This document shows, in pieces, positions 2,825 to 63,556 of a DNA stretch of 64,000 bases (positions within the stretch are counted from its first letter, which is position 1; each line of letters starts with the position of its first letter). The DNA lies in the sequence record PZ386976.1. One strand, 5' to 3'. A model generated the notes under the pieces. That model did no database searches. It was not told the origin of the DNA and was given only the letters and a program-made list of their open reading frames with translations. Source of the stretch: a phage. The position numbers and the translations under genes were made by a program.

Positions 2825-3225
2825 TTAGTTGATTGTTAAGTTGTTTGTAAAGAACCCTCAACAGAAGACTCTTTAGAAACTTGGTAGATTTTTAACGTGG
2901 CTACTACCATCCACCCATACCTCACATCACCATACCATACCATACCTGACCGGACCTAACCAAACTCCACAGCACCATACATCACATCACACAGCCTTAT
3001 TAAAAGACCCTGTTTAAAGACCCTTTAAAAAGGTAAGTCTCATTTTAATGTAGCTGAGACTAACTACCCATACCAAACAGCACCGCACTATGCCTTACCC
3101 CACCTCACCGAGCCTCGCCCCACATCACTTAAAAACCCTTTTCAAAGACTCTTAAGTGATGTTGGTGAGTACCCGTTGGTTTATGCTGCTCAGTATACTC
3201 ACCAAATTTTCTATGTCAACAACTT

Positions 3226-4329
3226 TTACTCATAATCCCTAATAACTAGGCCAACAGGGAACTGTAAAGACCCCTTACGAGTCATCTTCTGGAACTGAAC
3301 CGTTAAAGGCTTCCCGATAAACTCTTCAGGATGCTCAGCCAGATACTGCTTTTTCTCATGAGTGGTTTTCCATGAGACATCTACAAAGACGTTAGGAAGG
3401 GTCTCTACAACGAACTTGCCATGACCACGTTTATCAGTCTTTACACCAGTCACTTTAAACTCTTCAGTGTGCATCTTCTTATGCTTAATCAAGAAGTATG
3501 AACGGTGACCGCACTCATAGAAAGATTCTTCAGAGATTGAACGGTACATTGCACCTTCAAACTTAGCCTCAACCCACTTATCATGAGCTTCATCAAACTC
3601 TTCCCAAGAATTTACACGGCGAGACTTAATAGGAACAACTTTACAGCCGTCTCTAAAGTCATTTAATGGTGAAGTCTCAATAATATCTCTACGCTCAGGC
3701 CACGTTTTAGTACTGTCACAGATATCATACCAGTAGAACTTAAGTAAGTGTCTGTCAGGATTGTCTTCATTTTTAATCATGGAGACAATATCTTCTAAGT
3801 CCCACCCATGAGCATAAATCTCTCCATCAAATTCATCAACATCTTTGTGGAGCCTTAACATTGCCATAATGTCAGGTATTAGTTCAGTAGGGATTTTGTA
3901 AACAGTATTCTCACGAGAATATGCTGTAAATACACTGCCAATACTTAAGTGCCTTGAAATCCTACAACGTACACCATCAAGCTTCGGTTGAGCATCAGCA
4001 GGGAACTTCAGATACTTTGCATGACTAACCTTTGCAGCATCATGAGCAAGCTGTACACCTACCTTTTCAGTATTCTGTGCAGACTCTTTTGTGTAAGCAT
4101 AACCTTTACGGTCAACTTGCTTTTTATACTTAGCAGCAACTTCAAAGAGAGCTTGCTGTTCAGCGTTACGCTCATTCTTTTTACCGATGTTTTTAGGTTC
4201 TGCTGTATACTCTTCAAACATCATCTTGCCATTTTCTTTACCGTAGGTTGTAATAACTTTGTCACCTACAGCAACACATGACCAAACGTTGAAGGAACCA
4301 TCTTTATTTTGTTTGTATAGAATTGTCAT
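3226..4329 (-). CDS. ATP-dependent DNA ligase
   Basis: ORF 3226..4365; adenylation motif I KLDGVRC (KxDGxR) and downstream ligase-like motifs; start set at internal Met (MTILYK) abutting upstream gene. Confidence 0.7.
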   Translation of the reverse strand: MTILYKQNKDGSFNVWSCVAVGDKVITTYGKENGKMMFEEYTAEPKNIGKKNERNAEQQALFEVAAKYKKQVDRKGYAYTKESAQNTEKVGVQLAHDAAKVSHAKYLKFPADAQPKLDGVRCRISRHLSIGSVFTAYSRENTVYKIPTELIPDIMAMLRLHKDVDEFDGEIYAHGWDLEDIVSMIKNEDNPDRHLLKFYWYDICDSTKTWPERRDIIETSPLNDFRDGCKVVPIKSRRVNSWEEFDEAHDKWVEAKFEGAMYRSISEESFYECGHRSYFLIKHKKMHTEEFKVTGVKTDKRGHGKFVVETLPNVFVDVSWKTTHEKKQYLAEHPEEFIGKPLTVQFQKMTRKGSLQFPVGLVIRDYE

Positions 4330-28620: not shown

Positions 28621-28891
28621 AGAGAAGTGGGAGCTTTTACCATTAATCAGTGAAGGCGGTAATGGTTGTGAAATGTACATGATACGTGGTCATGTTCCAG
28701 AACCAATTGCACTTGAGATGGTAAACAACTTTACAGATGGCTCTTACAAAGACTTAGAGGAGCCAACTATAAAGCAGCAATGGGTAAAGCCTGTACCAGA
28801 TAGCACAGGTAACTGTAGTGTACTTTATCACGTTGTAGACCCTGCAAAATGCAAATCTGCAATGGCAGTAACAAACGTAACTTTTGATTGA
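28613..28891 (+). CDS. hypothetical protein
   Basis: 92 aa ORF. Confidence 0.4.
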   Translation: MAKEKWELLPLISEGGNGCEMYMIRGHVPEPIALEMVNNFTDGSYKDLEEPTIKQQWVKPVPDSTGNCSVLYHVVDPAKCKSAMAVTNVTFD

Positions 28892-29784
28892 GAGGGAAAA
28901 CTATGAAAACTGTTATTGAAGCCGTCGTCACCGCACAAGAGAAATTCTTCCACACAGAAAAATTTAATATCATTCAATTCCCATCTGGAGAAATTGGTGG
29001 AAACTTCTCTGAAGATTTTGTTAAGTTTACTGAGCGTAATGCTGGTAAGATTGATAATGTTATACTTACTGTACAGGGATATGACAAAGACACACTGTTT
29101 GCATTAGCTTTGGCTAAAGATGCCGTTGACAGTCTTGTTCCCCAGAAATCAGCGATGAAAACCGTTGTTTTCGGGTTCTTACCAAATGCTCGATATGACC
29201 GCCACATGTTCAAAGGTGATGCAGCAGCACTGAAAGTCTTTGCCAACCTCGTTAATGCAATGGGTTTTGATGCAGTATGTGCTCTTGACCCTCACAGTAA
29301 TGTTGCAGAAAACTTATTTAAGTGCTTTCAGAGCATGAAGCAAAAAGATGTTGCAGCACACTTTGCAAGTGACCCACGCATTGATTTCTTGGTAGCCCCA
29401 GATGCAGGTGCAGCTAAGAAGACTGAAAATACCGCTAAAGAAGTGGATAAACCGTATATCACAATGTCTAAGGTACGTAACCTTAAGACTGGTGAAATTA
29501 CTGGTATGCGAATCCTTGATGATGTTGATTTGACAGATAAAACTGTCATGATTCTGGATGATATTTGTGATGGAGGCCGAACCTTCGTAGAGGCAGCGAA
29601 ACACCTACGCGAAGCAGGTGCAAAACGTGTGGAACTATATGTAACACATGGAATTTTCTCTAAAGGTGTTGAAAACTTGCTTGACAACGGAATCGACCAT
29701 ATCTACACTACAAACACTTTAGGTGAAGCTAAAGACCGTGGATTAACACATTATGGTCAAGTTACTGTAGCAAACATTGATTGA
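28888..29784 (+). CDS. ribose-phosphate pyrophosphokinase (Prs)-family protein; candidate ADP-ribose pyrophosphokinase of a phage NAD-reconstitution pathway
   Basis: Prs-like motifs VAPDAGAAKK and MILDDICDGGRTF; immediately upstream of Nampt-like gene. Confidence 0.7.
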   Translation: MRGKTMKTVIEAVVTAQEKFFHTEKFNIIQFPSGEIGGNFSEDFVKFTERNAGKIDNVILTVQGYDKDTLFALALAKDAVDSLVPQKSAMKTVVFGFLPNARYDRHMFKGDAAALKVFANLVNAMGFDAVCALDPHSNVAENLFKCFQSMKQKDVAAHFASDPRIDFLVAPDAGAAKKTENTAKEVDKPYITMSKVRNLKTGEITGMRILDDVDLTDKTVMILDDICDGGRTFVEAAKHLREAGAKRVELYVTHGIFSKGVENLLDNGIDHIYTTNTLGEAKDRGLTHYGQVTVANID

Positions 29785-29830: not shown

Positions 29831-31612
29831 ATGACTAAATCACTTTATGCAGTACCAGCAGGTTTAAATGCGGACGCTTACAAGTCTGGCCATATATACC
29901 AGTACCCCAGTGCAACAGAGTACTTGATGTTCAACCTGACACCACGTAGCGACAAATGGTTTAACAGCCCTTTGGCAATTGACGGTGTAGTGGCTTTTGG
30001 TATTCAACGTTTTGTTAAAGATTACTTGATAGACCACTGGAATGCCACTTTCTTTGAACGTGATAAAAAAGAAGCAATTGACGAAATCTTAGAAGTCATG
30101 AATGGTGTTCTGGGTAAAGATGCTATCGGTCGGGAGCATTGGGAAGCACTTCACGACTTAGGTTATCTACCAGTTGGAGTATACGCTGTAGAAGAAGGCA
30201 CAGTTGTCCCTATGCGTGTTCCGATGATTGTTTTCCAGAACACTGTTTCAGGTTTCCATTGGGTAGCAGGTTATCTAGAAGATGCTTTCTCTGCTGAGAT
30301 TTGGAAGGCTTGTACCATTGCAACTATTGCATTGCACTACAAACGTATCTGTAAGAAGTGGGCTGACCTTACTTGTGATAACGACTTACATTTACCTTAT
30401 CAGTGCCATGACTTTGCTATGCGTGGTATGTCCGGCTTTACTGATGACGCATTTAACGCTGTAGGCCACTTAACCAGCTTTAAAGGGACTGATAGCTTCC
30501 CTGCTGTATATACAGCTAAACGCATCTACGGACAGTCTTACCCAGTCTCTGATATTGGTGGTTCTGTACCAGCCACTGAACACTCTGTAATGTGTGCAAA
30601 CATTGCTTGGGAAGGTGGTAATGAATTGATTGAAGAAGAAAGACGCTTTAAAGGTGAATTACAAACCTTCCGTCGCTTCTTAACAGAAACTTATCCAACT
30701 GGTATTGCAAGTGTTGTTTCAGATACTTATAACTTCTGGAGAACTGTGTCAGAAATCTTACCAGCACTCCGTAAAGAAATTATGGAACGTGATGGTAAAC
30801 TGGTGATTCGTCCTGACTCTGGAGACCCTGTACATATTGTCACAGGCTATAAAGCAATCCACTTAGAGTGTGCTAAGAAGGCTTATTACGAGCACCTGAG
30901 CAAGCTGGAAGCTAGTGACACAATGCTGAATGCTGTTCTGAACATGAAGCTTGAAAACATCAACTATGGTATTGCTGGATGGCTACTGTCAGAAGGCTAC
31001 GAAATGGTTGTTGACAGAGAAGACTTTGAAGTTGCGGATACAGTATTGCTAAAGAACGCTTATATGGTTGGTTCTGCAAACGTTGTAACACGCCCTGTAG
31101 CAGAGATTGATGGAGCTATTAAGACACTGTACAACATCTTTGGAGGGACTATCAACTCTAAAGGGTTTAAGGTACTGGATGAGCACATCGGCCTTATCTA
31201 TGGTGACTCTATCACACTGGAACGTGCAAACGAAATCCTGAAGCGCCTGTATGAAATGGGTTTTGCAAGCTCTAACGTAGTGTTTGGCGTAGGCTCTTAC
31301 ACTTACCAGTACATGACTCGTGACACCTTTGCATTTGCTGTCAAAGCAACTCTTGCAAGCATTGGTGGTAAAGAGGTTATGCTTGCAAAAGACCCTAAAA
31401 CAGATAGTGGTGTTAAGAAGTCTGCTTTTGGTGGTGTAGCACCTATGTGGGATGGTGATAAGTTGAAAGCTGTAGATGGCTATGGATTCCAGAGCTTTGC
31501 AGATGCACTTGAACATCCAGCTTGTGCTTTACGTTTAGTCTTTAGTGACTCTGAGCAGTACGGTTACACATCTCTTGGTGATATTCGAAATAATATTGAC
31601 AAGCAGCTTTAA
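29831..31612 (+). CDS. nadV: nicotinamide phosphoribosyltransferase-like protein
   Basis: 593 aa; NadV/Nampt-like length and N-terminal MTKSLYAVPAGLNADAYKSGH. Confidence 0.75.
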   Translation: MTKSLYAVPAGLNADAYKSGHIYQYPSATEYLMFNLTPRSDKWFNSPLAIDGVVAFGIQRFVKDYLIDHWNATFFERDKKEAIDEILEVMNGVLGKDAIGREHWEALHDLGYLPVGVYAVEEGTVVPMRVPMIVFQNTVSGFHWVAGYLEDAFSAEIWKACTIATIALHYKRICKKWADLTCDNDLHLPYQCHDFAMRGMSGFTDDAFNAVGHLTSFKGTDSFPAVYTAKRIYGQSYPVSDIGGSVPATEHSVMCANIAWEGGNELIEEERRFKGELQTFRRFLTETYPTGIASVVSDTYNFWRTVSEILPALRKEIMERDGKLVIRPDSGDPVHIVTGYKAIHLECAKKAYYEHLSKLEASDTMLNAVLNMKLENINYGIAGWLLSEGYEMVVDREDFEVADTVLLKNAYMVGSANVVTRPVAEIDGAIKTLYNIFGGTINSKGFKVLDEHIGLIYGDSITLERANEILKRLYEMGFASSNVVFGVGSYTYQYMTRDTFAFAVKATLASIGGKEVMLAKDPKTDSGVKKSAFGGVAPMWDGDKLKAVDGYGFQSFADALEHPACALRLVFSDSEQYGYTSLGDIRNNIDKQL

Positions 31613-35844: not shown

Positions 35845-36393
35845 ATGAAGAAATTGATTCTAGGTTTGTGCTTAATGTTTACAGCACACTTATCTTATGC
35901 AGTTGACTGCCCAGAGCTATCAATTAGCCAAAAAGTAAACATGTTAAAAGCTTACCAGTATGGTGAGAATAACATGGGTAAAGGTTGGGGTATCACTCTA
36001 GCTGCTATAGCCTTACAAGAGTCAGAGTTAGGCCTGAATGTAGAGAATAAAAAGACACATGATTATGGTATCTTCCAGAATCACTTGAAGACTGTTGTAA
36101 AGCGTAACAAAATCAGTCCTAATGTGGCTAAAAAGAAACTCTTAAAAGACTTTGACTATGCTGCGAAGGAAACGCACAAAGAGCTTGAGTTTTGGACAAA
36201 GGTGCATGGTCAGCCAAAGTCAAAGAAGACTTTACAAAAAGTTTTAGCATCTTATAATGCTGGGTATTCGTACAAAATCCCTAAAGCTAAGAAATATTCT
36301 CAAGATGTCTATAACAACATGAAAGCGATTGCTCAATGTGAATTTGCAACAAACATTTCTAAGGTAAATCATGAAAAAATTAAGAAAGTCTGA
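35845..36393 (+). CDS. putative secreted lytic transglycosylase-like protein
   Basis: signal peptide; SLT-like ALQESELG...YGIFQ. Confidence 0.4.
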   Translation: MKKLILGLCLMFTAHLSYAVDCPELSISQKVNMLKAYQYGENNMGKGWGITLAAIALQESELGLNVENKKTHDYGIFQNHLKTVVKRNKISPNVAKKKLLKDFDYAAKETHKELEFWTKVHGQPKSKKTLQKVLASYNAGYSYKIPKAKKYSQDVYNNMKAIAQCEFATNISKVNHEKIKKV

Positions 36394-37066
36394 TGAAGTA
36401 TTGTGCCATGCTTATGACTTACATCCTCATGAGTTAGGTCTTGATTCCTGTGTATGGACTCCAGAACAGTGCAGGGATTTTGAAGACACAGCAAGAGAAG
36501 TTGTATGTTCACTTGAAGAGTTCCACACAACAGAGCCAATTGTGAATGTTGTAGATAAAGAGACTGGACAAGCTATAGGTGTAAGTCGTGACAGCTTATT
36601 CATAGTCAATAAAGACCTTGTAGAAAAAGGTAACCTCATCTTAGCAGATATTGATGGTGTTCTTACAAATTTTAATCACGAAGATTGTTCAACGGAATTG
36701 ACTGATGGTTCATTTTCACAGTACACTAATCTTCTTGACTCTGTAAGAGCAAAACCAACGTATGTTTTCAATATCATTGATGCAATTGCTAATCATGCTG
36801 CCGTTGGACTCTTGACAGCGAGAGGCGAATCTCAGAGAATACCTACTGAGATGTTTTTAAGGCATAACACAGAGCATGATTATATGCTTTTTATGCGTGG
36901 TTTTGGAACTAACTCTATAAGTGCAGAAAGTTTGAAAGTGAGGATGATTCAGTCTTGCATTCTGCCTTACTTTAATATAGTATGTTTTATAGAAGATACA
37001 GAGAAGAATGTGCAGAAGGTGAACAGAATCCTTCCACACATCAAAACCATGTTAGTTAAACATTGA
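36371..37066 (+). CDS. hypothetical protein
   Basis: 231 aa ORF. Confidence 0.45.
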   Translation: MKKLRKSDEVLCHAYDLHPHELGLDSCVWTPEQCRDFEDTAREVVCSLEEFHTTEPIVNVVDKETGQAIGVSRDSLFIVNKDLVEKGNLILADIDGVLTNFNHEDCSTELTDGSFSQYTNLLDSVRAKPTYVFNIIDAIANHAAVGLLTARGESQRIPTEMFLRHNTEHDYMLFMRGFGTNSISAESLKVRMIQSCILPYFNIVCFIEDTEKNVQKVNRILPHIKTMLVKH

Positions 37067-38372: not shown

Positions 38373-38699
38373 ATGCAGATTAATGGAAGAGACTTTGTAG
38401 CCGTTTACTACGAGAAAGGTAAAGAAGTTGGCGTAGCACAAGTATCTTATGGCAATGGTAAGTGGCTATATGGAACAATCGCAGTAGTAGGAACAAGAAG
38501 TGATACAAAAACTTTTAAAGATTGTGTTGAACTTCTTGAAGAATCCATCCATAATCATTGGTGTCTGATATGGATGACTGATAACGAAGTGATGGAGCGT
38601 TTCAAAAAGATTGATATCCACATTGACAGTATTGAGCATGTTGATTTATATGAGCTAACTGAGAAGGTAAACTATGAAAGTAATACTAGCCAGAGATAA
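38373..38699 (+). CDS. hypothetical protein
   Basis: 108 aa ORF. Confidence 0.4.
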   Translation: MQINGRDFVAVYYEKGKEVGVAQVSYGNGKWLYGTIAVVGTRSDTKTFKDCVELLEESIHNHWCLIWMTDNEVMERFKKIDIHIDSIEHVDLYELTEKVNYESNTSQR

Positions 38700-38907
38700 A
38701 AAGACCCGCAAGATTGTACGTTCAGCAGTATTCATAGGGAGAGATGAAGTCGTCCCGTTTGCAGGGGAAGATGTGCTAACTTATAAGAAGGGTTTAAAAC
38801 GTAAATTCAGTGACCGTTTACGCGGCTTCATCTCTGAACCATTAGAAGATTTCAAAAGTCGCTGTGGCGAAGGCATCATCATTCAAGAGGCAATTATTCA
38901 TGGCTGA
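38674..38907 (+). CDS. hypothetical protein
   Basis: 77 aa ORF. Confidence 0.35.
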   Translation: MKVILARDKKTRKIVRSAVFIGRDEVVPFAGEDVLTYKKGLKRKFSDRLRGFISEPLEDFKSRCGEGIIIQEAIIHG

Positions 38908-39100
38908 TTTCTGCAAAGATTGTGCTATCGAAATGTTTGGACGTGATACAGGTGACTTAAAAGGTCTCATCACTGAAGATGACTTTAAAGCTGGCTATGC
39001 AATGCCAGTAATCTGTGAAGGTTGTGGGTGCATCTGGGTAGACCACGAAGGGCAACGTGTAAAACCTTCAGAAGATAAAGAATCTTGGGAGAGATGTTAA
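38864..39100 (+). CDS. hypothetical Cys-rich protein
   Basis: 78 aa with CKDC...CEGCGC. Confidence 0.35.
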   Translation: MAKASSFKRQLFMADFCKDCAIEMFGRDTGDLKGLITEDDFKAGYAMPVICEGCGCIWVDHEGQRVKPSEDKESWERC

Positions 39101-39886
39101 ATGGGTATTGTAAAAATCATCAATGGTGATATCTTTGCAGCATTTGATAAAGGTAAGTTTGACGTCATTGGTCACGGTTGCAACTGTATGAATTTAATGG
39201 GTGCAGGTATCGCTGACAAGATTTCTAAACTTTACCCAAAAGCATATGAGACTGATACAGAAGTTTATCTATATGCAGGCGGTATAGGCCACAAACCCTG
39301 TGAAAATTTACTGGGTAATTTCTCCGTAGCACGTTTAAAACAAGGTCGTATAGCTAACCTTTACACTCAGCTTAAGACTGGTAAAGATGCCAGATACAGT
39401 GCTTTAGAGTCATCTTTGAAACAGCTTAACAGATACTGTGAAGTCAACCAGTTGAAGAAGGTTGGTCTACCTATGATTGGTGCAGGTATCGGTGGGCTAG
39501 ACCCTCAAGCCGTCACAGTTATCATTAATCAGGTGATGAAGAGTGTAGATGTGTATCTTTATGTCTACGAAGGAGAGATGTACCACAAGTTACGCTCAGG
39601 TTGGAAGAACTACTGTGAACCAGAATACTTTGCAGGTGTAGTAGTGTTCACTAATGATGCAGTTACCCTCTTCAGACGAAGAAAAGGTAAGATACATCAA
39701 AGTAACCCTCCGGTTGAAAAGATGTCTCTAAGTAACGCTCTAGTTACCCACCTGTCGAAGAGCAGTCACAGGATTGCAGTAACATTTGGCAGTGATGCAG
39801 ATGCTTACATCTATGCAAGAACTGATGAGGATATCGAGACGGTTTTCTCTTCACCAGAGCTTACCTTCTTAGACGCAAAGAACTAA
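39101..39886 (+). CDS. macrodomain protein (putative ADP-ribose binding/hydrolase)
   Basis: macrodomain-like glycine motifs VIGHGCNCMNLMGAGIA and PMIGAGIGGL; extra C-terminal ~100 aa. Confidence 0.55.
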   Translation: MGIVKIINGDIFAAFDKGKFDVIGHGCNCMNLMGAGIADKISKLYPKAYETDTEVYLYAGGIGHKPCENLLGNFSVARLKQGRIANLYTQLKTGKDARYSALESSLKQLNRYCEVNQLKKVGLPMIGAGIGGLDPQAVTVIINQVMKSVDVYLYVYEGEMYHKLRSGWKNYCEPEYFAGVVVFTNDAVTLFRRRKGKIHQSNPPVEKMSLSNALVTHLSKSSHRIAVTFGSDADAYIYARTDEDIETVFSSPELTFLDAKN

Positions 39887-39954
39887 GAAACTTCGTAGTA
39901 TATTCACAATAGACTAAGCCTTTCTTATCTGGTAAATTTTTCAGGTAAGGAGGG

Positions 39955-40140
39955 CTTTTTCATTTCAGAATTGTGCAGGTAGAGTTCTGTAGAGAAATCT
40001 ATAGAGAAAATTTTGAACTCCAAAGAGAAAATTCATTTTCAAACTGTGCAGGTAATCTCCAAAGAGCTTTTCCATTTTCAAAACGTGCAGACCCCACTCA
40101 GGTCGGGCAAGAAAAATCATTTTAGAATTGTGCAGGTAGG
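39955..40140 (+). repeat. four direct repeats of (cattttca)NNNtgtgcaggta, iteron/operator-like
   Basis: tgtgcaggta at 39972, 40045, 40129 and variant cgtgcagacc at 40084, spaced 40-75 bp, in ORF-free region before small-gene array. Confidence 0.4.
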
Positions 40141-58222: not shown

Positions 58223-58299
58223 CTCTGTTTAGCTCAGCTTGGTAGAGCGTTCCGTTTGGGGCGGTAAGGCCGGAGGTTCAAGTCCTCCAACAGAGACCA
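58223..58299 (+). tRNA. tRNA-Pro: tRNA-Pro (anticodon TGG)
   Basis: manual cloverleaf: acceptor ctctgtt/aacagag, anticodon loop ttTGGgg, T-arm ggagg-ttcaagt-cctcc, CCA encoded. Confidence 0.6.
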
Positions 58300-58316
58300 A
58301 ATTTAAAGGGGTTACT

Positions 58317-58673
58317 ATGAGATTTTTAAAAGAATGTCCAGTTCATGGTTTAACTGAACATAGCATTCATAAGAATGGTAACGCCGGTAATAGAGTAAAT
58401 TGTCTAAAATGTTGTGCATTAAGGACAAAACTTAGAGAGGATGCCAATAGGGAGAAAGCATACAAGTTTTATGGCGATAGTTGCAAAATTTGTGGCTATA
58501 ATAAATGTAAAAATGCTTTAGAATGGCATCACCTTAACCCAAACGAAAAAGAGAATACACCATCAAAAATTATGGGTGCATCTTGGGAAAAGGTTAAAAA
58601 AGAACTTGATAAATGTGTTTTGCTCTGTGCTAATTGCCACAGAGAGGTTCATAGTGGAATTACAACGGTTTAA
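58317..58673 (+). CDS. HNH homing endonuclease within tRNA cluster
   Basis: Cys-rich zinc-binding elements and HNH motif EWHHLNP...LLCANCHREVH; ORF 58239.. trimmed to MRFLKE because upstream part overlaps tRNA-Pro. Confidence 0.6.
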   Translation: MRFLKECPVHGLTEHSIHKNGNAGNRVNCLKCCALRTKLREDANREKAYKFYGDSCKICGYNKCKNALEWHHLNPNEKENTPSKIMGASWEKVKKELDKCVLLCANCHREVHSGITTV

Positions 58674-58674
58674 T

Positions 58675-58749
58675 GTCGTAGAAGGCAAATGGTTAGCCAC
58701 CTGACCTTCAATCAGTTGCTCGCAGGTTCGAATCCTGTCTACGACACCA
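58675..58749 (+). tRNA. tRNA, anticodon tentative (TTC, Glu?)
   Basis: acceptor gtcgtag/ctacgac, T-arm gcagg-ttcgaat-cctgt, CCA encoded; anticodon loop ccTTCaa has atypical C33. Confidence 0.45.
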
Positions 58750-58753
58750 GTTT

Positions 58754-58832
58754 TGACAGAAGACCAATTACAGCAAACTTAATCTTATTCATCTGAAGGT
58801 AAATCGGACAAAGAAGAGATTTGGTCTGGTCA
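58754..58832 (+). ncRNA. conserved bulged-helix module 1 (outer stem tgac/gtca, 5' AGA bulge, inner stem agaccaa/ttggtct, 3' G bulge)
   Basis: one of four copies with covarying outer stems; encloses AT-rich loop. Confidence 0.35.
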
Positions 58833-58840
58833 TTAAGAAT

Positions 58841-58917
58841 TGCGGGTATAGAGAAAGGGCGTCTCACATGTCTCATTAGCATGGTATCGGCAGGTTCGAC
58901 TCCTGCACCCGCCTCCA
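58841..58917 (+). tRNA. tRNA-Met/Ile2 (anticodon CAT), initiator-like unpaired 1:72
   Basis: acceptor (t)gcgggt/acccgc(c), anticodon loop ctCATta, T-arm gcagg-ttcgact-cctgc, CCA encoded. Confidence 0.5.
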
Positions 58918-58920
58918 ATT

Positions 58921-58986
58921 TTGCAGAAGACCGTATTCAGCAACAAACTACTTTTTGCGGATAAAAGAAAAAACACGGTCTGGCAA
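58921..58986 (+). ncRNA. conserved bulged-helix module 2 (outer ttgc/gcaa, inner agaccgt/acggtct)
   Basis: same architecture as module 1 with compensatory base changes. Confidence 0.35.
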
Positions 58987-58994
58987 TGTATTAA

Positions 58995-59071
58995 GGTTAG
59001 GAAGCACATAAGGTATGTGCGGTCGCCTGTTAAGCGAATGGCACAGGGTTCGAATCCCTGACTAACCGCCA
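58995..59071 (+). tRNA. tRNA-Asn: tRNA-Asn (anticodon GTT)
   Basis: acceptor ggttagg/actaacc, D-arm gcac-ataaggtat-gtgc, anticodon arm gtcgc-ctGTTaa-gcgaa, T-arm caggg-ttcgaat-ccctg, CCA. Confidence 0.7.
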
Positions 59072-59140
59072 AATTTAGGAGAGAAGCGATTGCTCACCGA
59101 TTTGTAAGGTGCAAGTCCTTAGCCTGAATAGAAATTAAAT

Positions 59141-59228
59141 GTGTCGTTATCCCGTAGATGGTAGCGGTGGGGACTGTAAATCCCTTGTCATTGAGACTCG
59201 GTAGGTTCGACTCCTACACGGCACACCA
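59141..59228 (+). tRNA. tRNA-Tyr: tRNA-Tyr (anticodon GTA), long variable arm
   Basis: acceptor gtgtcgt/acggcac, anticodon arm gggga-ctGTAaa-tccct, long variable arm, T-arm gtagg-ttcgact-cctac, CCA. Confidence 0.65.
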
Positions 59229-59233
59229 ATAAA

Positions 59234-59311
59234 GGTTATGTAGTTTAATTTGGTTAAAATACTCCCCTGTCACGGGAGATGATGAGGGTTCAAATCCCTT
59301 CGTAACCGCCA
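59234..59311 (+). tRNA. tRNA-Asp: tRNA-Asp (anticodon GTC)
   Basis: acceptor ggttatg/cgtaacc, anticodon arm ctccc-ctGTCac-gggag, T-arm gaggg-ttcaaat-ccctt, CCA. Confidence 0.7.
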
Positions 59312-59369
59312 ATTTTGAGAGGGCTATTTAGCCCCTCCCTTAAAGGGTTCTTACGAGTATCCTTTAAAG

Positions 59370-59451
59370 GAGCAGAAGACCAAATACAGCAAGAACGTAT
59401 GAAAATTTCAAGCCAATTTAATTTTGAAAAATTTAAAACTTGGTCTGGCTC
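59370..59451 (+). ncRNA. conserved bulged-helix module 3 (outer gagc/gctc, inner agaccaa/ttggtct)
   Basis: same architecture, compensatory outer-stem change. Confidence 0.35.
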
Positions 59452-59458
59452 AACAAAT

Positions 59459-59595
59459 TTACAGAAGACCGTTTACAGCAAAACTTAAACAATCTATTTC
59501 TCGGTAAAGAAAAGGCGAAGGTTCGATTCCTTCACTCGGCAGATGTCGAGTTGGTGTAATGGTAGCACTTAAGATGATAAACAACGGTCTGGTAA
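59459..59595 (+). ncRNA. conserved bulged-helix module 4 enclosing a circularly permuted tRNA-like domain; candidate Y-RNA-like RNA
   Basis: outer ttac/gtaa, inner agaccgt/acggtct; enclosed 59517-59568 has T-arm gaagg-ttcgatt-ccttc, 7-bp hairpin actcggc-agat-gtcgagt (acceptor-like) and D-arm-like gtg-taatggtag-cac in permuted order. Confidence 0.35.
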
Positions 59596-59736
59596 TTATC
59601 TTTGTAGATAAGTTATTAAGCTTACCTGTGAGTATGCGACCACAAAGGGTGAAAGGGTAAATTCTAGATTTAAACCCAAAAAGGCACATCGCTACAGACC
59701 TTAAGCAAGTCTGGGTAGCTTATCTACAAAGATAAT
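59595..59736 (+). ncRNA. long hairpin with perfect 18-bp stem enclosing ~106 nt
   Basis: attatctttgtagataag (59595-59612) is the exact reverse complement of cttatctacaaagataat (59719-59736); no ORF. Confidence 0.3.
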
Positions 59737-59741
59737 TTAAT

Positions 59742-59817
59742 GGAAGTGTAGCAGAATGGTGATGCGGCAGACTTTTAATCTGACAGGCGATGGGTTCGAA
59801 TCCCTCCACTTCTACCA
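59742..59817 (+). tRNA. tRNA-Lys: tRNA-Lys (anticodon TTT)
   Basis: acceptor ggaagtg/cacttct, D-arm gca-gaatggtga-tgc, anticodon loop ctTTTaa, T-loop ttcgaat, CCA. Confidence 0.6.
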
Positions 59818-59821
59818 AAAT

Positions 59822-59898
59822 GGTTCAGTCGCAGATAAGGTAATTCAAGGGTCTCATAAGACCTATGAATGTGGGTTCGATTCCCATCTGAACCTCCA
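59822..59898 (+). tRNA. tRNA-Met/Ile2 (anticodon CAT), tentative
   Basis: acceptor ggttcag/ctgaacc perfect, anticodon loop ctCATaa, T-arm gtggg-ttcgatt-cccat, CCA; D-arm irregular. Confidence 0.45.
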
Positions 59899-59900
59899 AT

Positions 59901-59975
59901 TGTGGGTTAGCATAAATGGTAATGCAAACGGCTGATAACCGTTAGAAGAGGGTTCGATACCCTCACCTACAACCA
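59901..59975 (+). tRNA. tRNA-Ile: tRNA-Ile (anticodon GAT)
   Basis: acceptor tgtgggt/acctaca, D-arm gcat-aaatggta-atgc, anticodon arm aacgg-ctGATaa-ccgtt, T-arm gaggg-ttcgata-ccctc, CCA. Confidence 0.7.
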
Positions 59976-59990
59976 ATTTCAATAAAGTTG

Positions 59991-60019
59991 TTGACATTGA
60001 GATGTGACTACTTTATAGT
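59991..60019 (+). promoter_or_regulatory. sigma70-like promoter inside tRNA cluster
   Basis: TTGACA, 17 nt, TATAGT; followed by ~200 nt ORF-free region before next tRNA. Confidence 0.5.
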
Positions 60020-60222
60020 AACCTTAGTTTTCGTTGCGTAGCGTCTATTTTGCAAATTTAAAATAAATGCAAACGACAATGTTTTTCTGGCAGTAGCTTG
60101 ATAGGCTAAACACCAGTGAGGTCTTCCAATCCCTCATCAAAGAATTTGGCGTACTAGCCCACGGTATGATTAATAAGGTGGGCATCTTTAAGTGCTTTCT
60201 GAGAGAGTCTTTAAAGATTAAT

Positions 60223-60299
60223 GCACCCTTAGTTCAATTGGATAGAGCAACGGTCTTCTAAATCGTTAGTTACAGGTTCGAATCCTGTAGGGTGTACCA
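60223..60299 (+). tRNA. tRNA-Arg: tRNA-Arg (anticodon TCT)
   Basis: acceptor gcaccct/agggtgt, D-arm gttc-aattggata-gagc, anticodon arm acggt-ctTCTaa-atcgt, T-arm acagg-ttcgaat-cctgt, CCA. Confidence 0.7.
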
Positions 60300-60441
60300 A
60301 ATAGTTAGCAGATTGCTTAGACGACCTTATCGGGTCTCCGTGTAAGGAGGTGGTCTGTATCTCATGTTTTCCAGAACATGTAAATAATCTGAGAAGGGGC
60401 TTTACAGTGTTGCGAAAATACGGTAAGCTTCGAATTATAGT

Positions 60442-60524
60442 ATGGGACGATGTTAAGACTCTAAGGCATGAGCAACGGCCTCCAAAACCGTTTCAAAGGG
60501 GTTCAACTCCTCCGTCCCATGCCA
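60442..60524 (+). tRNA. tRNA-like gene with oversized D region (possible anticodon CCA, Trp?)
   Basis: acceptor atgggac/gtcccat perfect, T-arm agggg-ttcaact-cctcc, CCA; candidate anticodon loop ctCCAaa; D region ~7 nt too long. Confidence 0.35.
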
Positions 60525-60537
60525 AAGTCTTATTAGG

Positions 60538-60625
60538 GGTAGGTAGCGGCTAATGGCAGCCAAACAGTCTTGAAAACTGTTGCCACTGTAGAGATACGGT
60601 GAGGGTTCGACTCCTTTACTTACCG
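60538..60625 (+). tRNA. tRNA-Ser: tRNA-Ser (anticodon TGA), long variable arm
   Basis: acceptor ggtaggt/acttacc, anticodon arm acagt-ctTGAaa-actgt perfect, long variable arm, T-loop ttcgact. Confidence 0.6.
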
Positions 60626-60882
60626 CCTAATAAGATTTAAAGCCAAGCTTCATTCGGATGTTGCTTTGGTATCCCTCGTGTATTGTCGTACACACTGATA
60701 AAGCACCTAGTAGGTGTCACGGAGAAGAGATAATATCAAGCTCTCCAAAGGTTCTAGTCACCGGATTAAACAAGGCTATGCAAAGACCTGTTTAGGTCTT
60801 TTTAGAGGGCTTCTAAGGTTATTACAGCTTGTTGTGGAACCTTGTTGCTTAGGTTCTTAGAAGTTCTCTAAAAAGATTTAAT

Positions 60883-60960
60883 GGGAGATTGACGGTAATT
60901 GGTAAACCTACCATCCTTAGAAGTTGGTGTTTGAGGGTTCGAATCCCTTGTCTCCTACCA
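60883..60960 (+). tRNA. tRNA, anticodon tentative (TAG, Leu?) with short variable arm
   Basis: acceptor gggagat/gtctcct, anticodon arm ccatc-ctTAGaa-gttgg, T-arm gaggg-ttcgaat-ccctt, discriminator A, CCA. Confidence 0.45.
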
Positions 60961-60967
60961 AATTAAT

Positions 60968-61043
60968 GCAGGTGTAGCAAAATGGTTATGCGGCTGACTC
61001 TTAATCAGTAAGACGATGGGTTCAATTCCCTCCACCTGTACCA
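60968..61043 (+). tRNA. tRNA-Lys: tRNA-Lys (anticodon CTT)
   Basis: paralog of Lys-TTT gene; anticodon arm gctga-ctCTTaa-tcagt, T-loop ttcaatt, CCA. Confidence 0.55.
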
Positions 61044-61049
61044 AATATT

Positions 61050-61125
61050 GGGGTCATAGTTTATATGGTTAAAATTCGAGTTTTGCAAACTTGGGAACTG
61101 AGTTCAATTCTCAGTGACTCCACCA
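61050..61125 (+). tRNA. tRNA-Ala: tRNA-Ala (anticodon TGC)
   Basis: acceptor ggggtca/tgactcc, anticodon arm cgagt-ttTGCaa-acttg, T-arm ctgag-ttcaatt-ctcag, CCA. Confidence 0.6.
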
Positions 61126-61131
61126 ATTAGT

Positions 61132-61206
61132 GCATCCATAGTTTAAACGGGAAAATTACAGTCTTCCAAACTGAGGTTGAGGGTTCGATTCCCTCTGGAT
61201 GCTCCA
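61132..61206 (+). tRNA. tRNA-Gly: tRNA-Gly (anticodon TCC)
   Basis: acceptor gcatcca/tggatgc perfect, anticodon loop ctTCCaa, T-arm gaggg-ttcgatt-ccctc, CCA. Confidence 0.6.
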
Positions 61207-61212
61207 AACAAT

Positions 61213-61289
61213 GCTGCTTTCGTATAATTGGCTATTACACATCCCTTGTAAGGATGGAAATGCAGGTTCGAGTCCTGTGAGCAGCACCA
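61213..61289 (+). tRNA. tRNA-Thr: tRNA-Thr (anticodon TGT)
   Basis: acceptor gctgctt/gagcagc, anticodon arm catcc-ctTGTaa-ggatg perfect, T-arm gcagg-ttcgagt-cctgt, CCA. Confidence 0.7.
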
Positions 61290-61380
61290 ATTCAGAGGTC
61301 AAGTGAAAGACCGCTGGTGTCAACTGAAGACCGTAACAAATTCCACGGAGTTGAGTTAGCGGCACAACTTCAGACCTCTT
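61290..61380 (+). ncRNA. structured element with terminal inverted repeat and a variant of the conserved gaagaccgt box
   Basis: cagaggtc pairs with gacctct ~70 nt downstream; contains ctgaagaccgtaacaaa. Confidence 0.25.
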
Positions 61381-61384
61381 TCAT

Positions 61385-61459
61385 ACTCGCTTAGTTTATA
61401 TGGTAAAACATCACCCTTACAAGATGAAGAAGAAGGTTCAAGTCCTTTAGTGAGTACCA
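61385..61459 (+). tRNA. tRNA-Val: tRNA-Val (anticodon TAC), tentative
   Basis: acceptor actcgct/agtgagt, anticodon arm tcacc-ctTACaa-gatga (one mismatch), T-arm gaagg-ttcaagt-ccttt, CCA. Confidence 0.5.
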
Positions 61460-61460
61460 T

Positions 61461-61538
61461 GTTCCAGTATCCCAATTGGCAGAGGATGCAAGCTCAAACC
61501 TTGTACTAGTGACGGTTCGAATCCGTCTTGGAACACCA
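61461..61538 (+). tRNA. tRNA-Leu: tRNA-Leu (anticodon CAA) with short variable arm
   Basis: acceptor gttccag/ttggaac, D-arm tcc-caattggcaga-gga, anticodon arm gcaag-ctCAAac-cttgt, T-arm gacgg-ttcgaat-ccgtc, discriminator A, CCA. Confidence 0.5.
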
Positions 61539-61543
61539 ATTTT

Positions 61544-61619
61544 GCAGGATTAGTTCAAATGGATAGAGCAACAGTCTACGAAGCTGTTAATAGGGGTTCG
61601 AATCCCTTATCCTGCACCA
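61544..61619 (+). tRNA. tRNA-Arg: tRNA-Arg (anticodon ACG)
   Basis: acceptor gcaggat/atcctgc perfect, D-arm gttc-aaatggata-gagc, anticodon arm acagt-ctACGaa-gctgt, T-loop ttcgaat, CCA. Confidence 0.65.
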
Positions 61620-61638
61620 ATTTAAAGAGGCTATTTAA

Positions 61639-62196
61639 ATGAGATATTTGAAGTATGCTTCATGGATTTTCCTAGCTTTGTTAGACCCATTGGCAGCAAC
61701 CTTAGCAGTTATCTTAGCACCTTTTGTAGTTCCATTCTATAGTGAGAAGAAAGGACATCTACCTTTTGGATTCAGATGGATGGAGACATATGACAACCCT
61801 ATTGATGGTGATGAAGGTCACATTAAACGATGGGCTAAGATTAGAAAGATTGGTAAGCTTGGTGTCTATTTGCAGAGAGTTGGATGGCTCTGGAGAAACA
61901 AAGCTTATAACTTCTCTTACCATGTGTTAGGAAGAGATATAAAAGATGTTACTAAGTGGAAAGGTAATATCAACGTAAGCTCTGACCCTGAAGATAATCA
62001 GACAGGTTATCTCCTAATGTGGAACAGTAATGCTTGGGGATTATTCGCTTTTATCCCATCAATTAAAATCTTTGGTAAACAATTCTACTGGAGAATTTAT
62101 GTTGGGTGGAAACTAAAAAGTGTTGTCCCAGAAGAAAGAGCATTCTCAAGGGAAAGAGTTATGTTGGCATTCTTTATTCATCCACTGAGAAAGTAA
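61639..62196 (+). CDS. membrane protein embedded in tRNA cluster
   Basis: 185 aa with N-terminal hydrophobic helix. Confidence 0.45.
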   Translation: MRYLKYASWIFLALLDPLAATLAVILAPFVVPFYSEKKGHLPFGFRWMETYDNPIDGDEGHIKRWAKIRKIGKLGVYLQRVGWLWRNKAYNFSYHVLGRDIKDVTKWKGNINVSSDPEDNQTGYLLMWNSNAWGLFAFIPSIKIFGKQFYWRIYVGWKLKSVVPEERAFSRERVMLAFFIHPLRK

Positions 62197-62204
62197 AGAT
62201 TTAA

Positions 62205-62280
62205 AGGGGATTAGTTTACAAGGTTGAAACCTCGGTCTTTGAAATCGAAGAAGTTGGTTCAATTCCAACATCCCCCGCCA
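62205..62280 (+). tRNA. tRNA-Gln: tRNA-Gln (anticodon TTG)
   Basis: acceptor (a)ggggat/atccccc with unpaired 1:72, D-arm gttt-acaaggttg-aaac, anticodon arm tcggt-ctTTGaa-atcga, T-arm gttgg-ttcaatt-ccaac, CCA. Confidence 0.55.
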
Positions 62281-62282
62281 AT

Positions 62283-62361
62283 GCTCCATTACTCCAATTG
62301 GCAGAGAGGCCAGACTTAAAATCTGTGTTATGTATCGGTTCGAATCCGATATGGAGTACCA
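62283..62361 (+). tRNA. tRNA-Leu: tRNA-Leu (anticodon TAA) with short variable arm
   Basis: acceptor gctccat/atggagt, D-arm ctc-caattggcaga-gag, anticodon arm ccaga-ctTAAaa-tctgt, T-arm atcgg-ttcgaat-ccgat, discriminator A, CCA. Confidence 0.5.
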
Positions 62362-62366
62362 AATTT

Positions 62367-62442
62367 AGCGGTATAGCATAACTGGCAATGCAGCAGTCTC
62401 TGAAGCTGTCCTATTAAGGTTCAAATCCTTATGCCGCTGCCA
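62367..62442 (+). tRNA. tRNA-Gln (anticodon CTG), tentative
   Basis: acceptor agcggta/tgccgct, anticodon arm gcagt-ctCTGaa-gctgt, T-arm taagg-ttcaaat-cctta, CCA. Confidence 0.5.
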
Positions 62443-62473
62443 CTTCTAAGGATTCTTACGAGAGTCCTTAAAT

Positions 62474-62549
62474 GTGGCCTTATCATAAATGGTAATGACC
62501 CATGCTGTGAACATGGTCTATACGGGTTCAAATCCCGTAGGTCACCCCA
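62474..62549 (+). tRNA. tRNA-His: tRNA-His (anticodon GTG)
   Basis: acceptor gtggcct/aggtcac, anticodon arm ccatg-ctGTGaa-catgg perfect, T-arm acggg-ttcaaat-cccgt, CCA. Confidence 0.65.
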
Positions 62550-62554
62550 ATTTA

Positions 62555-62631
62555 TAGTCCAAGTAGCTTATATGGTTAAAGCGCGTGTCTGAAAAACATG
62601 AGAAGAGGGTTCAAATCCCACTGGACTACCA
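62555..62631 (+). tRNA. tRNA-Phe: tRNA-Phe (anticodon GAA), 3' end ambiguous
   Basis: acceptor tagtcca/tggacta, anticodon arm cgtgt-ctGAAaa-acatg, T-arm gaggg-ttcaaat-cccac. Confidence 0.5.
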
Positions 62632-62648
62632 ATTTCAAAGGTGCTTAA

Positions 62649-63382
62649 TGAAAGAGATGACAGAACAAGGTAAGGAGATTTTTAATCTCTTAAAAACCGG
62701 TAGAGGGTTTTCTAATCCCCTTATTACTGGTGCAGCAGTTCTAGGTGGAACCGTAGCTGCCTCTACATCACTTGTAAGCTCTATTAGTTCTGTAACAGAC
62801 CCTACAATGAAGGATAAACTCATTGCTGCTGGACTTACAACAGTTCTGCTTAATAGCTTTACAACGAGTCTGACAAGCACTACAGCAACTACTAAGACAT
62901 TGACAGATTATGGTCAAAAATCTATTGATGAGTTTTCCTCACGTATGCAGGTAGCAAAAGGCTACTCCAATGTTATGGGTGCAGCAGGAGAGCAAGTTGG
63001 TTGTACACCATTTAGTGGTATTATGGGTGTTGCTACAGAGTATGGTCAAAAAGCTATGGATACAATTAACAGCACACTAGATGATGTTAATGCCGTGTTA
63101 AGTGACTTACAGGATGCTATTGATAAAGGTCTTGATACTATTTCTGATTTAGCTAACCAAGCCGTTAGCAAGATTAATGAAGGTATCTCGAAGATTACAG
63201 CTTATGCAGATGAAGTTGTGCAGATGATTGAAGAAGAAGCTGCCCTTGTTGCAGATTACCTTAAAACGAATATTAATGGGTTCTTAGCAGGTGTCTTACC
63301 AGACTGGTTTGATGATGCTTGTAAAACTGGTGTGATTGACACTATTGCAACACCAGAAATGAAGAACGCATTACAGAAATAA
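62649..63382 (+). CDS. hypothetical protein, Ser/Thr-rich N-terminal half and helical C-terminal half
   Basis: ORF 62585.. trimmed to MKEMTEQ because upstream part overlaps tRNA-Phe. Confidence 0.45.
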
Positions 63383-63383
63383 T

Positions 63384-63476
63384 GGAAGATTAACCCTAAA
63401 AGGTAAGGGAGCAGTTTGCTAAACTGCCAGTAGCTGAGAAATCGGTGTACCAGTTCAAGTCTGGTATCTTCCTCCA
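63384..63476 (+). tRNA. tRNA-Ser: tRNA-Ser (anticodon GCT), long variable arm
   Basis: acceptor ggaagat/atcttcc perfect, anticodon arm gcagt-ttGCTaa-actgc perfect, long variable arm, T-arm accag-ttcaagt-ctggt, CCA. Confidence 0.7.
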
Positions 63477-63480
63477 ATTT

Positions 63481-63556
63481 GAATCCGTGACAGAAATGGA
63501 TATGTGCCTGTCTGCAAAACAGGTTTATAAGGGTTCGAGTCCCTTCGGATTCTCCA
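63481..63556 (+). tRNA. tRNA-Cys: tRNA-Cys (anticodon GCA)
   Basis: acceptor gaatccg/cggattc perfect, anticodon arm cctgt-ctGCAaa-acagg perfect, T-arm aaggg-ttcgagt-ccctt, CCA. Confidence 0.7.

Follow-up and report, generated by a model that had tools for sequence, protein, structure and literature searches.

We analysed a 64,000-nucleotide stretch of phage DNA (sequence record PZ386976.1; the whole stretch is referred to below as the window), which comes from a Felix O1-like myovirus of the genus Felixounavirus, and focused on a single gene whose 261-residue product combines an N-terminal macrodomain with a C-terminal domain (below, the macro gene and the macro protein). The open reading frame (ORF) and the two glycine motifs named in a preliminary description of the sequence were recovered exactly, and the elements of the gene are as follows.

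39101..39886, + strand: coding sequence of the two-domain macrodomain protein, taken from the ORF list (ATG start, 261 codons, TAA stop; stop included)
39101..39571, + strand: macrodomain, residues 1-157, TARG1/DarG/Tk.4-like, from Pfam, PDB profile matches, AlphaFold2 and Foldseek, and identity to Tk.4
39170..39214, + strand: loop 1 motif GHGCNCMNLMGAGIA, residues 24-38, located by alignments
39356..39370, + strand: NLYTQ motif, residues 86-90, located by alignments, with Q90 at the position of the catalytic Lys
39470..39499, + strand: loop 2 (phosphate-binding) motif PMIGAGIGGL, residues 124-133, located by alignments
39572..39883, + strand: C-terminal orphan domain, residues 158-261, with a linker helix, six β-strands and a short helix

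Residues 1-157 were confirmed as a macrodomain, well beyond chance. The Pfam profile PF01661 (Macro) aligned over positions 2-117 of its 118 with residues 25-141 and scored 32.3 bits, above its gathering score of 22 (E = 1e-7), and a family profile built from 19 two-domain homologues retrieved from the PDB human TARG1/OARD1 (E = 3.7e-11), the DarG proteins of M. tuberculosis (3.6e-9) and T. aquaticus (1.5e-7) and also TTHA0132, as well as yeast Poa1p (6lfu; E = 6.5e-5), the last over residues 1-60 only. The full-length AlphaFold2 model (mean predicted local distance difference test score, pLDDT, 87.9; predicted template modelling score, pTM, 0.87) has a three-layer α/β/α fold that can be superposed on solved macrodomains, and the best PDB matches found for it by Foldseek were again the TARG1 and DarG macrodomains (E about 1e-9 to 1e-8; target-normalised template modelling score, TMt, 0.77-0.84), with TARG1 at E = 1.2e-9 and TMt 0.82, DarG at TMt 0.77-0.81, and 237 PDB chains at E <= 1e-3. 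Among profiles for defence systems and for protein naming, the top match was DarG (PADLOC, 2.9e-13; NCBIfam antitoxin_DarG, 1.5e-12), to which the macro half alone aligns; one homologue of the macro protein carries the NCBI name 'Poa1p_like family protein'. The earlier macrodomain call therefore held up in the hidden Markov model searches that had been proposed as its check. The macro protein falls in the TARG1/DarG clade, which hydrolyses thymidine-linked ADP-ribose (T-ADPr) (PMC12879935); of the human hydrolases tested on T-ADPr, only TARG1 was robustly active, alongside T. aquaticus DarG (PMC12879935).

The active site was aligned with those of TARG1, both DarG macrodomains, PhiKZ AdfM and the T4 protein Tk.4. 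Residues N28, G34, A35, G36, G127, A128, G129, I130 and G132 are invariant in the 19 two-domain homologues, and N28 aligns with N23 of PhiKZ AdfM, the Asn mutated in the N23A variant. The motif N86-L-Y-T-Q90 is likewise invariant (19/19) and is present in T4 Tk.4 and in most of the phage relatives retrieved. Q90 lies at the position of the catalytic Lys of DarG (FPTK motif) and of TARG1 (K84), and G131 at that of TARG1 D125. Because Q90 replaces the Lys and G131 replaces D125, the macro protein is, to judge from the alignment, mechanistically neither a DarG nor a TARG1, and Lys catalysis of either type was ruled out on the same grounds. By analogy, however, a Gln in place of the Lys does not preclude catalysis: SCO6735, which has Gln85 and Ala130 at these two positions, hydrolyses protein ADP-ribose (PMC5087735) and acts on T-ADPr DNA (PMC12879935). 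Since a Gln-type enzyme is active, including on T-ADPr DNA, Q90 would not argue against catalysis.

The division into a macrodomain of ~157 amino acids (aa) and an unassigned C-terminal part of ~104 aa was also correct, and the extension stayed without assignment after sequence, profile and fold searches. It had no match in Pfam, NCBIfam or PADLOC; phmmer against 1.84 billion representatives returned the close family only, a profile search of a 5.8-billion-protein set returned one fragment only, and a fold search of BFVD returned only the homologous protein of phage SUSP2. In these searches, then, no relative of the C-terminal domain in sequence or fold came from beyond Ounavirinae. AlphaFold nevertheless predicted the helix, six β-strands and short helix both in the full-length protein and for the isolated region (isolated pLDDT 81), so that by modelling it is a genuine folded domain, and the high full-length pTM suggests that it packs in a fixed position on the macrodomain. 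The domain is under purifying selection that is about three-fold weaker than that on the macrodomain (ratio of nonsynonymous to synonymous substitution rates, dN/dS, 0.19 versus 0.06 among 21 close Felixounavirus alleles). Only P174, G179 and Y236 are conserved in it across the family, and these look structural rather than catalytic. Neither an acidic single-stranded DNA (ssDNA) mimic nor a basic DNA binder was supported as a candidate, since the isoelectric point (pI) varies from 4.8 to 9.7 across homologues; this varying net charge argues in particular against a DarG-like acidic ssDNA mimic.

Other lineages have different C-termini. The Erwinia-type Ounavirinae (L036, and L037 at 2998-3780; genomes of ~84.5 kb) encode an orthologous macro protein of 260 aa, and its C-terminal ~100 aa had neither profile similarity to the Felix-type domain (hhalign probability 0.1%) nor a Pfam match; the two extensions are either unrelated, one having been replaced, or diverged past detection. 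In addition, a metagenomic relative of 339 aa (P0027) joins an NLYTQ-type macrodomain to a C-terminal cREC_REC (cyclic-phosphate processing receiver) domain. Because the Felix-type, Erwinia-type and P0027 C-termini differ, the macrodomain seems to be a constant core to which various C-terminal partners can be joined.

The macro gene is widespread and is already annotated, in more than 200 phage records, as 'putative phosphatase' or 'macro domain protein'. The 3-kb region around it shares 92-94% DNA identity with more than 190 Escherichia, Salmonella and Shigella phage records, and proteins 93-98% identical to the macro protein are found in more than 190 Felixounavirus records, where they are named 'putative phosphatase', 'phosphatase', 'macro domain-containing protein' or 'hypothetical protein' (bas63_0095 in Bas63). 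PHROG 335 ('phosphatase') matches residues 1-260 (E = 1.8e-112). A tblastn search of 50,697 phage records found a macro relative in ~2,800 of them, mostly single-domain proteins of ~150 aa from T-even and other large myoviruses and including a gene annotated tk.4. In distant Ounavirinae-like contigs the order rIIB, HAD_PNKP-like gene, macro gene is kept, and since the macro proteins there are only 32-36% identical, the macro gene is an old, vertically kept part of the phage subfamily. No ADP-ribosyltransferase (ART) gene adjoins it in the window or in the syntenic loci, its neighbours in the window being small phage ORFs without an ART domain; nor is there an adjacent darT, with the same synteny in other Ounavirinae.

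Within the close relatives, the gene has also been exchanged. Three independent contigs (L006, L034 and L035) encode 8-9 flanking proteins that are 92-100% identical to those of the window together with a macro protein that is only 41% identical overall (53% in the macrodomain and 26% in the C-terminal domain), and DNA identity is lost ~140 nt into the macro gene and regained downstream of it. The divergent allele (P0009) represents 96 member sequences. Such deep allele replacement in a near-identical background resembles the outcome of an arms race and is expected at a host-interaction or counter-defence locus, although by itself it does not identify which defence is countered.

Taken with these observations, homology to T4 Tk.4 (35% identity over residues 3-157 by BLASTP, E = 2e-24; RB51 Tk.4 was also compared) points to a function. 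When a T4 transposon library was propagated on a host with DarTG2, only tk.4 stood out significantly, and its clean knockout sensitised T4 to DarTG2, for which the gene was named adfM, for anti-DarT factor Macrodomain; its authors propose enzymatic removal of ADP-ribose from DNA (bioRxiv 10.1101/2025.11.20.689424, a preprint of November 2025). We propose that the macro protein is a Tk.4/AdfM-type ADP-ribosyl hydrolase, an orphan enzyme resembling an antitoxin, that removes DarT2-type thymidine ADP-ribosylation from phage ssDNA through a Gln-type active site and carries a C-terminal accessory module, a reading to which we give about even weight. The ADP-ribose moiety would be bound in a cleft between loop 1 (N28 and G34-A35-G36) and loop 2 (G127 to G132), and the macrodomain would cleave the linkage at ribose C1'' to release free ADP-ribose. 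The most likely substrate would be thymidine-linked ADP-ribose set on single-stranded phage DNA by DarT2-type toxins, and its removal would allow replication to resume in Escherichia or Salmonella hosts that carry DarTG2. Catalysis would proceed without the Lys of DarG and TARG1, presumably by the poorly understood Gln-type mechanism of SCO6735/BT1257, and the β-rich C-terminal domain would be a non-catalytic, lineage-specific accessory module, perhaps for substrate targeting or protein binding, or alternatively for stability or oligomerisation. Fold, homology, conserved motifs, purifying selection and allele replacement are directly supported by the present data, whereas the substrate, the hydrolysis, the counter-defence function and whatever the C-terminal domain does are inferred. 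The DarT2 target motif TNTC occurs 2414 times in the window (expected 2373 ± 43), so that protection by avoidance of the motif was rejected and the phage is a potential DarT2 target. The preliminary description had likewise suggested an anti-ADP-ribosylation factor, and this is the best-supported reading by virtue of the Tk.4 homology and the DarG top match, not by virtue of the argument from NAD-related genes that had been offered for it; the accompanying suggestion of DarTG-positive hosts was sound.

Several points weigh against this proposal. The catalytic Lys of DarG and TARG1 is absent, and the C-terminal domain showed no resemblance to the DarT-binding domain of DarG. Identity to Tk.4 is only 35%, and whereas proteins of the Tk.4/AdfM type are single domains of ~150 aa, the macro protein has 261 aa with a folded C-terminal domain. 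The evidence for Tk.4 is itself genetic only, in a preprint and without biochemistry; the anti-DarTG2 effect has been shown for Tk.4 only, and for all Felixounavirus homologues the function is derived from homology. Macrodomains of the TARG1/DarG clade are moreover promiscuous, TARG1 acting on protein-Glu-ADPr, O-acyl-ADPr and T-ADPr. A comparative survey concluded that phage macrodomains mostly target soluble, low-molecular-weight ADP-ribose (ADPr) derivatives (Iyer et al., PMC9503650), and the architecture of P0027 points to processing of soluble molecules of the ADPr cyclic phosphate (ADPr>p) type in that lineage.

Accordingly, hydrolysis of soluble derivatives has to be weighed, although we regard it as rather unlikely. 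The substrates would be ADP-ribose-1''-phosphate (as for Poa1p), O-acetyl-ADP-ribose, or ADPr-derived immune signals and toxic metabolites from TIR, sirtuin or RES-type defence enzymes, which the phage would detoxify or silence early in infection. Besides the survey, this fits the 'phosphatase' annotation, which stems from Poa1p-like ADP-ribose-1''-phosphate activity, the match of the N-terminal 60 residues to Poa1p and the homologue named after it, the cREC fusion in P0027, the HAD_PNKP-like gene 2 kb upstream with its conserved synteny, and the investment of the phage in NAD+ salvage. The best overall matches in both sequence and fold are nevertheless TARG1 and DarG rather than Poa1p, the sole genetic phenotype of a family member, that of Tk.4, concerns DarTG2, and no KptA/Tpt1, 2H or RNA ligase gene that could be a source of ADPr>p (Appr>p) is annotated in the syntenic region of Bas63. 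Reversal of protein or RNA ADP-ribosylation, laid down by mRNA ARTs of the CmdTAC type, by protein ARTs or by over-modification by an ART, is in our view unlikely: the nearest characterised enzymes, TARG1 and SCO6735, do remove Glu-linked ADP-ribose from protein (PMC5087735), and mRNA ADP-ribosylation is known to act against phages (PMC11618068), yet the missing ART gene beside the macro gene, here and in syntenic loci, and the lack of genetic evidence for such a role in any member of the Tk.4 family both speak against it. Removal of T-ADPr and these two alternatives are not mutually exclusive, because enzymes of this clade are promiscuous in vitro.

A purely non-catalytic action, in which loss of the Lys means loss of activity and the protein serves as a sponge for ADP-ribose or ADPr signals or inhibits a toxin stoichiometrically through its C-terminal domain, seems very improbable. 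The activity of Gln-type macrodomains speaks against it, as do the invariant N28 and glycine loops 1 and 2 and the very strong purifying selection on them; the C-terminal domain, moreover, is not consistently acidic, as an ssDNA mimic would be, and has no similarity to that of DarG. What would favour it are the two substitutions, Q90 for the Lys and G131 for TARG1 D125, the fast evolution of the C-terminal domain and the existence of phage anti-DarT factors that act by direct binding (ICP1 AdfB, PMC11481870). A more elaborate variant of the hydrolase proposal, which we offer as a speculation of low probability, would make the C-terminal domain a second, non-enzymatic counter-defence module that binds the toxin or targets ADP-ribosylated ssDNA. 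Together with the Gln-type macrodomain it would form a phage-built functional analogue of the two-domain DarG from an unrelated fold, and its rapid divergence, with the replacement of whole alleles among Felixounaviruses that are nearly identical elsewhere, would follow differences among the DarT or other ART toxins of hosts.

The transcriptional setting of the macro gene was defined by two further elements.

39087..39093, + strand: Shine-Dalgarno-like GGGAGAG, 7 nt before the ATG of the macro gene, read from the sequence
39916..39965, + strand: intrinsic-terminator-like hairpin followed by a U-run, from a sequence scan and RNA folding

There is no gap between the TAA (39098-39100) that ends the upstream ORF and the start codon of the macro gene, which suggests translational coupling of the two genes. 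The terminator-like hairpin begins 30 nt past the macro stop and is strong (-25.8 kcal/mol, z = -6.9; 0/200 shuffles fold as well); with its U-run it therefore marks the macro gene as the last gene of its transcription unit. On the same strand, the block leading up to it runs in the order Nrd genes, phosphoribosyl pyrophosphate (PRPP)-synthetase-like ORF, nicotinamide phosphoribosyltransferase (NAMPT), rIIA, rIIB, SLT-like lysin, HAD/PNKP-like ORF, spanins, small ORFs and macro gene. An Rfam scan matched the tRNA cluster only, with no match near the macro gene. That cluster comprises 24 tRNA genes on the + strand (58223-63553) and is typical of Felix O1-like phages.

Directly after the terminator, a gene-poor gap contains 3-4 direct repeats of ~22-34 nt (39960-40139). 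The repeat TCATTTnnRAAyTGTGCAGGTA lies at 39960, 40033 and 40117, with a degenerate copy near 40072 and spacings of 39-84 nt, and the pattern has 0 other occurrences in the window at 0-2 mismatches (expected 0.02). The same gap carries insertions in related phages. The repeats might be iteron-like, act as a regulatory site or mark a recombination hotspot.

Three of the genes upstream of the macro gene have features of their own. The 66-aa protein encoded by the abutting ORF (38900-39100) has zinc-ribbon-like CxxC...CxGC motifs and is 97-100% conserved across almost every Felixounavirus locus examined, even where the macro allele has been replaced. One distant locus (L004) has a different CxxC protein at the same position and two others (L005 and L036) do not, so that a role as conserved upstream partner was rejected: the protein is conserved in Felixounavirus and not in the more distant syntenic loci. 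Two genes upstream of the macro gene, a 77-aa ORF (38674-38907) is hypervariable among otherwise near-identical Felixounaviruses: it is missing from some and 26-100% identical in the rest, against 92-100% for its neighbours. In Pfam it gave a faint match, below threshold, to the C-terminal end of the anti-Gabija protein Gad1 (E = 0.037), and its position may be a further exchangeable slot for accessory or anti-defence genes. Finally, the 231-aa ORF at 36371-37066, which keeps its position relative to the macro gene throughout the Ounavirinae-like contigs, is called 'polynucleotide kinase' in relatives, yet it gave a weak match to the HAD_PNKP phosphatase domain only (E = 0.047) and a kinase domain was not detected in it, so the label may overstate what is known.

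The NAD-related gene pair to which the preliminary description had tied the macro gene is present farther upstream.

28888-29784: PRPP-synthetase-like ORF, 298 aa, TTG start as listed
29831-31612: NAMPT ORF, 593 aa

The pair is similar to the NAD+ reconstitution modules by which phages are known to counter defences that deplete NAD. It lies ~7.5-10 kb upstream of the macro gene, with rIIA/rIIB, lysis genes and others in between, and a functional link is not supported: at least ~7.5 kb and unrelated genes separate the two, and no evidence in its favour was found.

Overall, the macro protein is a credible but mostly ordinary counter-defence candidate. The gene family was already annotated and a likely role was proposed for T4 in 2025, which makes the gain incremental; what is new here is the assignment of the Felix O1-type protein to the Tk.4/AdfM family, the Gln-type nature of that family, the orphan C-terminal domain restricted to Ounavirinae, and the allelic replacement. 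Felix O1-like phages are widely used in typing and biocontrol of Salmonella and E. coli. If the macro protein is a true anti-DarT2 factor, AdfM-type counter-defence extends from T-even phages to Ounavirinae, which would help to predict the host range of Felix O1-like phages on DarTG-carrying strains, and the invariant Gln would provide a second, phage-borne example of Gln-type DNA de-ADP-ribosylation. For the study of specificity in the arms race between DarT and anti-DarT factors, the abrupt exchange of alleles and the orphan C-terminal domain are natural material.

Comparison with characterised relatives places the macro protein among several known systems. Human TARG1/OARD1 (PDB 4J5R and others) is its best match in the PDB in both sequence and structure, with the catalytic pair K84/D125 where the macro protein has Q90/G131. 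The DarG2 macrodomains of T. aquaticus and M. tuberculosis (PDB 5M31/5M3E/5M3I) have the same fold, belong to the same clade (Foldseek E about 1e-8, TM about 0.8) and, like the macro protein, keep the loop 1 Asn. Their NFPTKK motif, however, contains the catalytic Lys in place of Q90, the macro protein scores 47.5 bits against the equivalog cutoff of 250 for NCBIfam NF048014 (DarG), aligning with positions 12-153 of 338, and it lacks both the DarT-binding, ssDNA-mimic C-terminal domain of DarG and a darT neighbour. The SCO6735/BT1257 subclass (PDB 5E3B, 2FG1) shares with the macro protein the Gln at the K84 position, the missing Asp at the D125 position and a similar loop 2 (RIGCGLAGG versus PMIGAGIGG), and is catalytically active, including on T-ADPr DNA. 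Its members are bacterial, DNA-damage-inducible, single-domain proteins rather than two-domain phage proteins, and single-sequence similarity to them is marginal (2fg1, E = 0.032; 5e3b, E = 0.55); with the profile, none of these structures fell below E = 0.01, as against 1e-7 to 1e-11 for TARG1/DarG, so the macro protein is not closer kin to this subclass than to the others.

Among phage proteins, gp104 (AdfM) of the chimallivirus PhiKZ is also an orphan macrodomain, whose catalytic Asn, N23, is equivalent to N28. In vitro it strips a TNTC oligonucleotide of the ADP-ribose added by DarT2; it also rescues DarT2 toxicity, and its N23A variant has reduced activity (PMC13309987). Unlike the macro protein, PhiKZ AdfM is a one-domain, DarG-like protein of the Lys type (FPTK) that is far closer to DarG (E = 9e-25) and undergoes import into the phage nucleus. 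The relative with the most in common is T4 Tk.4: both proteins contain HGCNC...MGxGxA, NLYTQ with Gln at the Lys position, and IGAGIG, both belong to PHROG 335, and both are encoded by stand-alone phage genes with no adjacent toxin. Tk.4 is a single domain of 155 aa, to which the macro protein adds the ~104-aa C-terminal domain found only in Ounavirinae.

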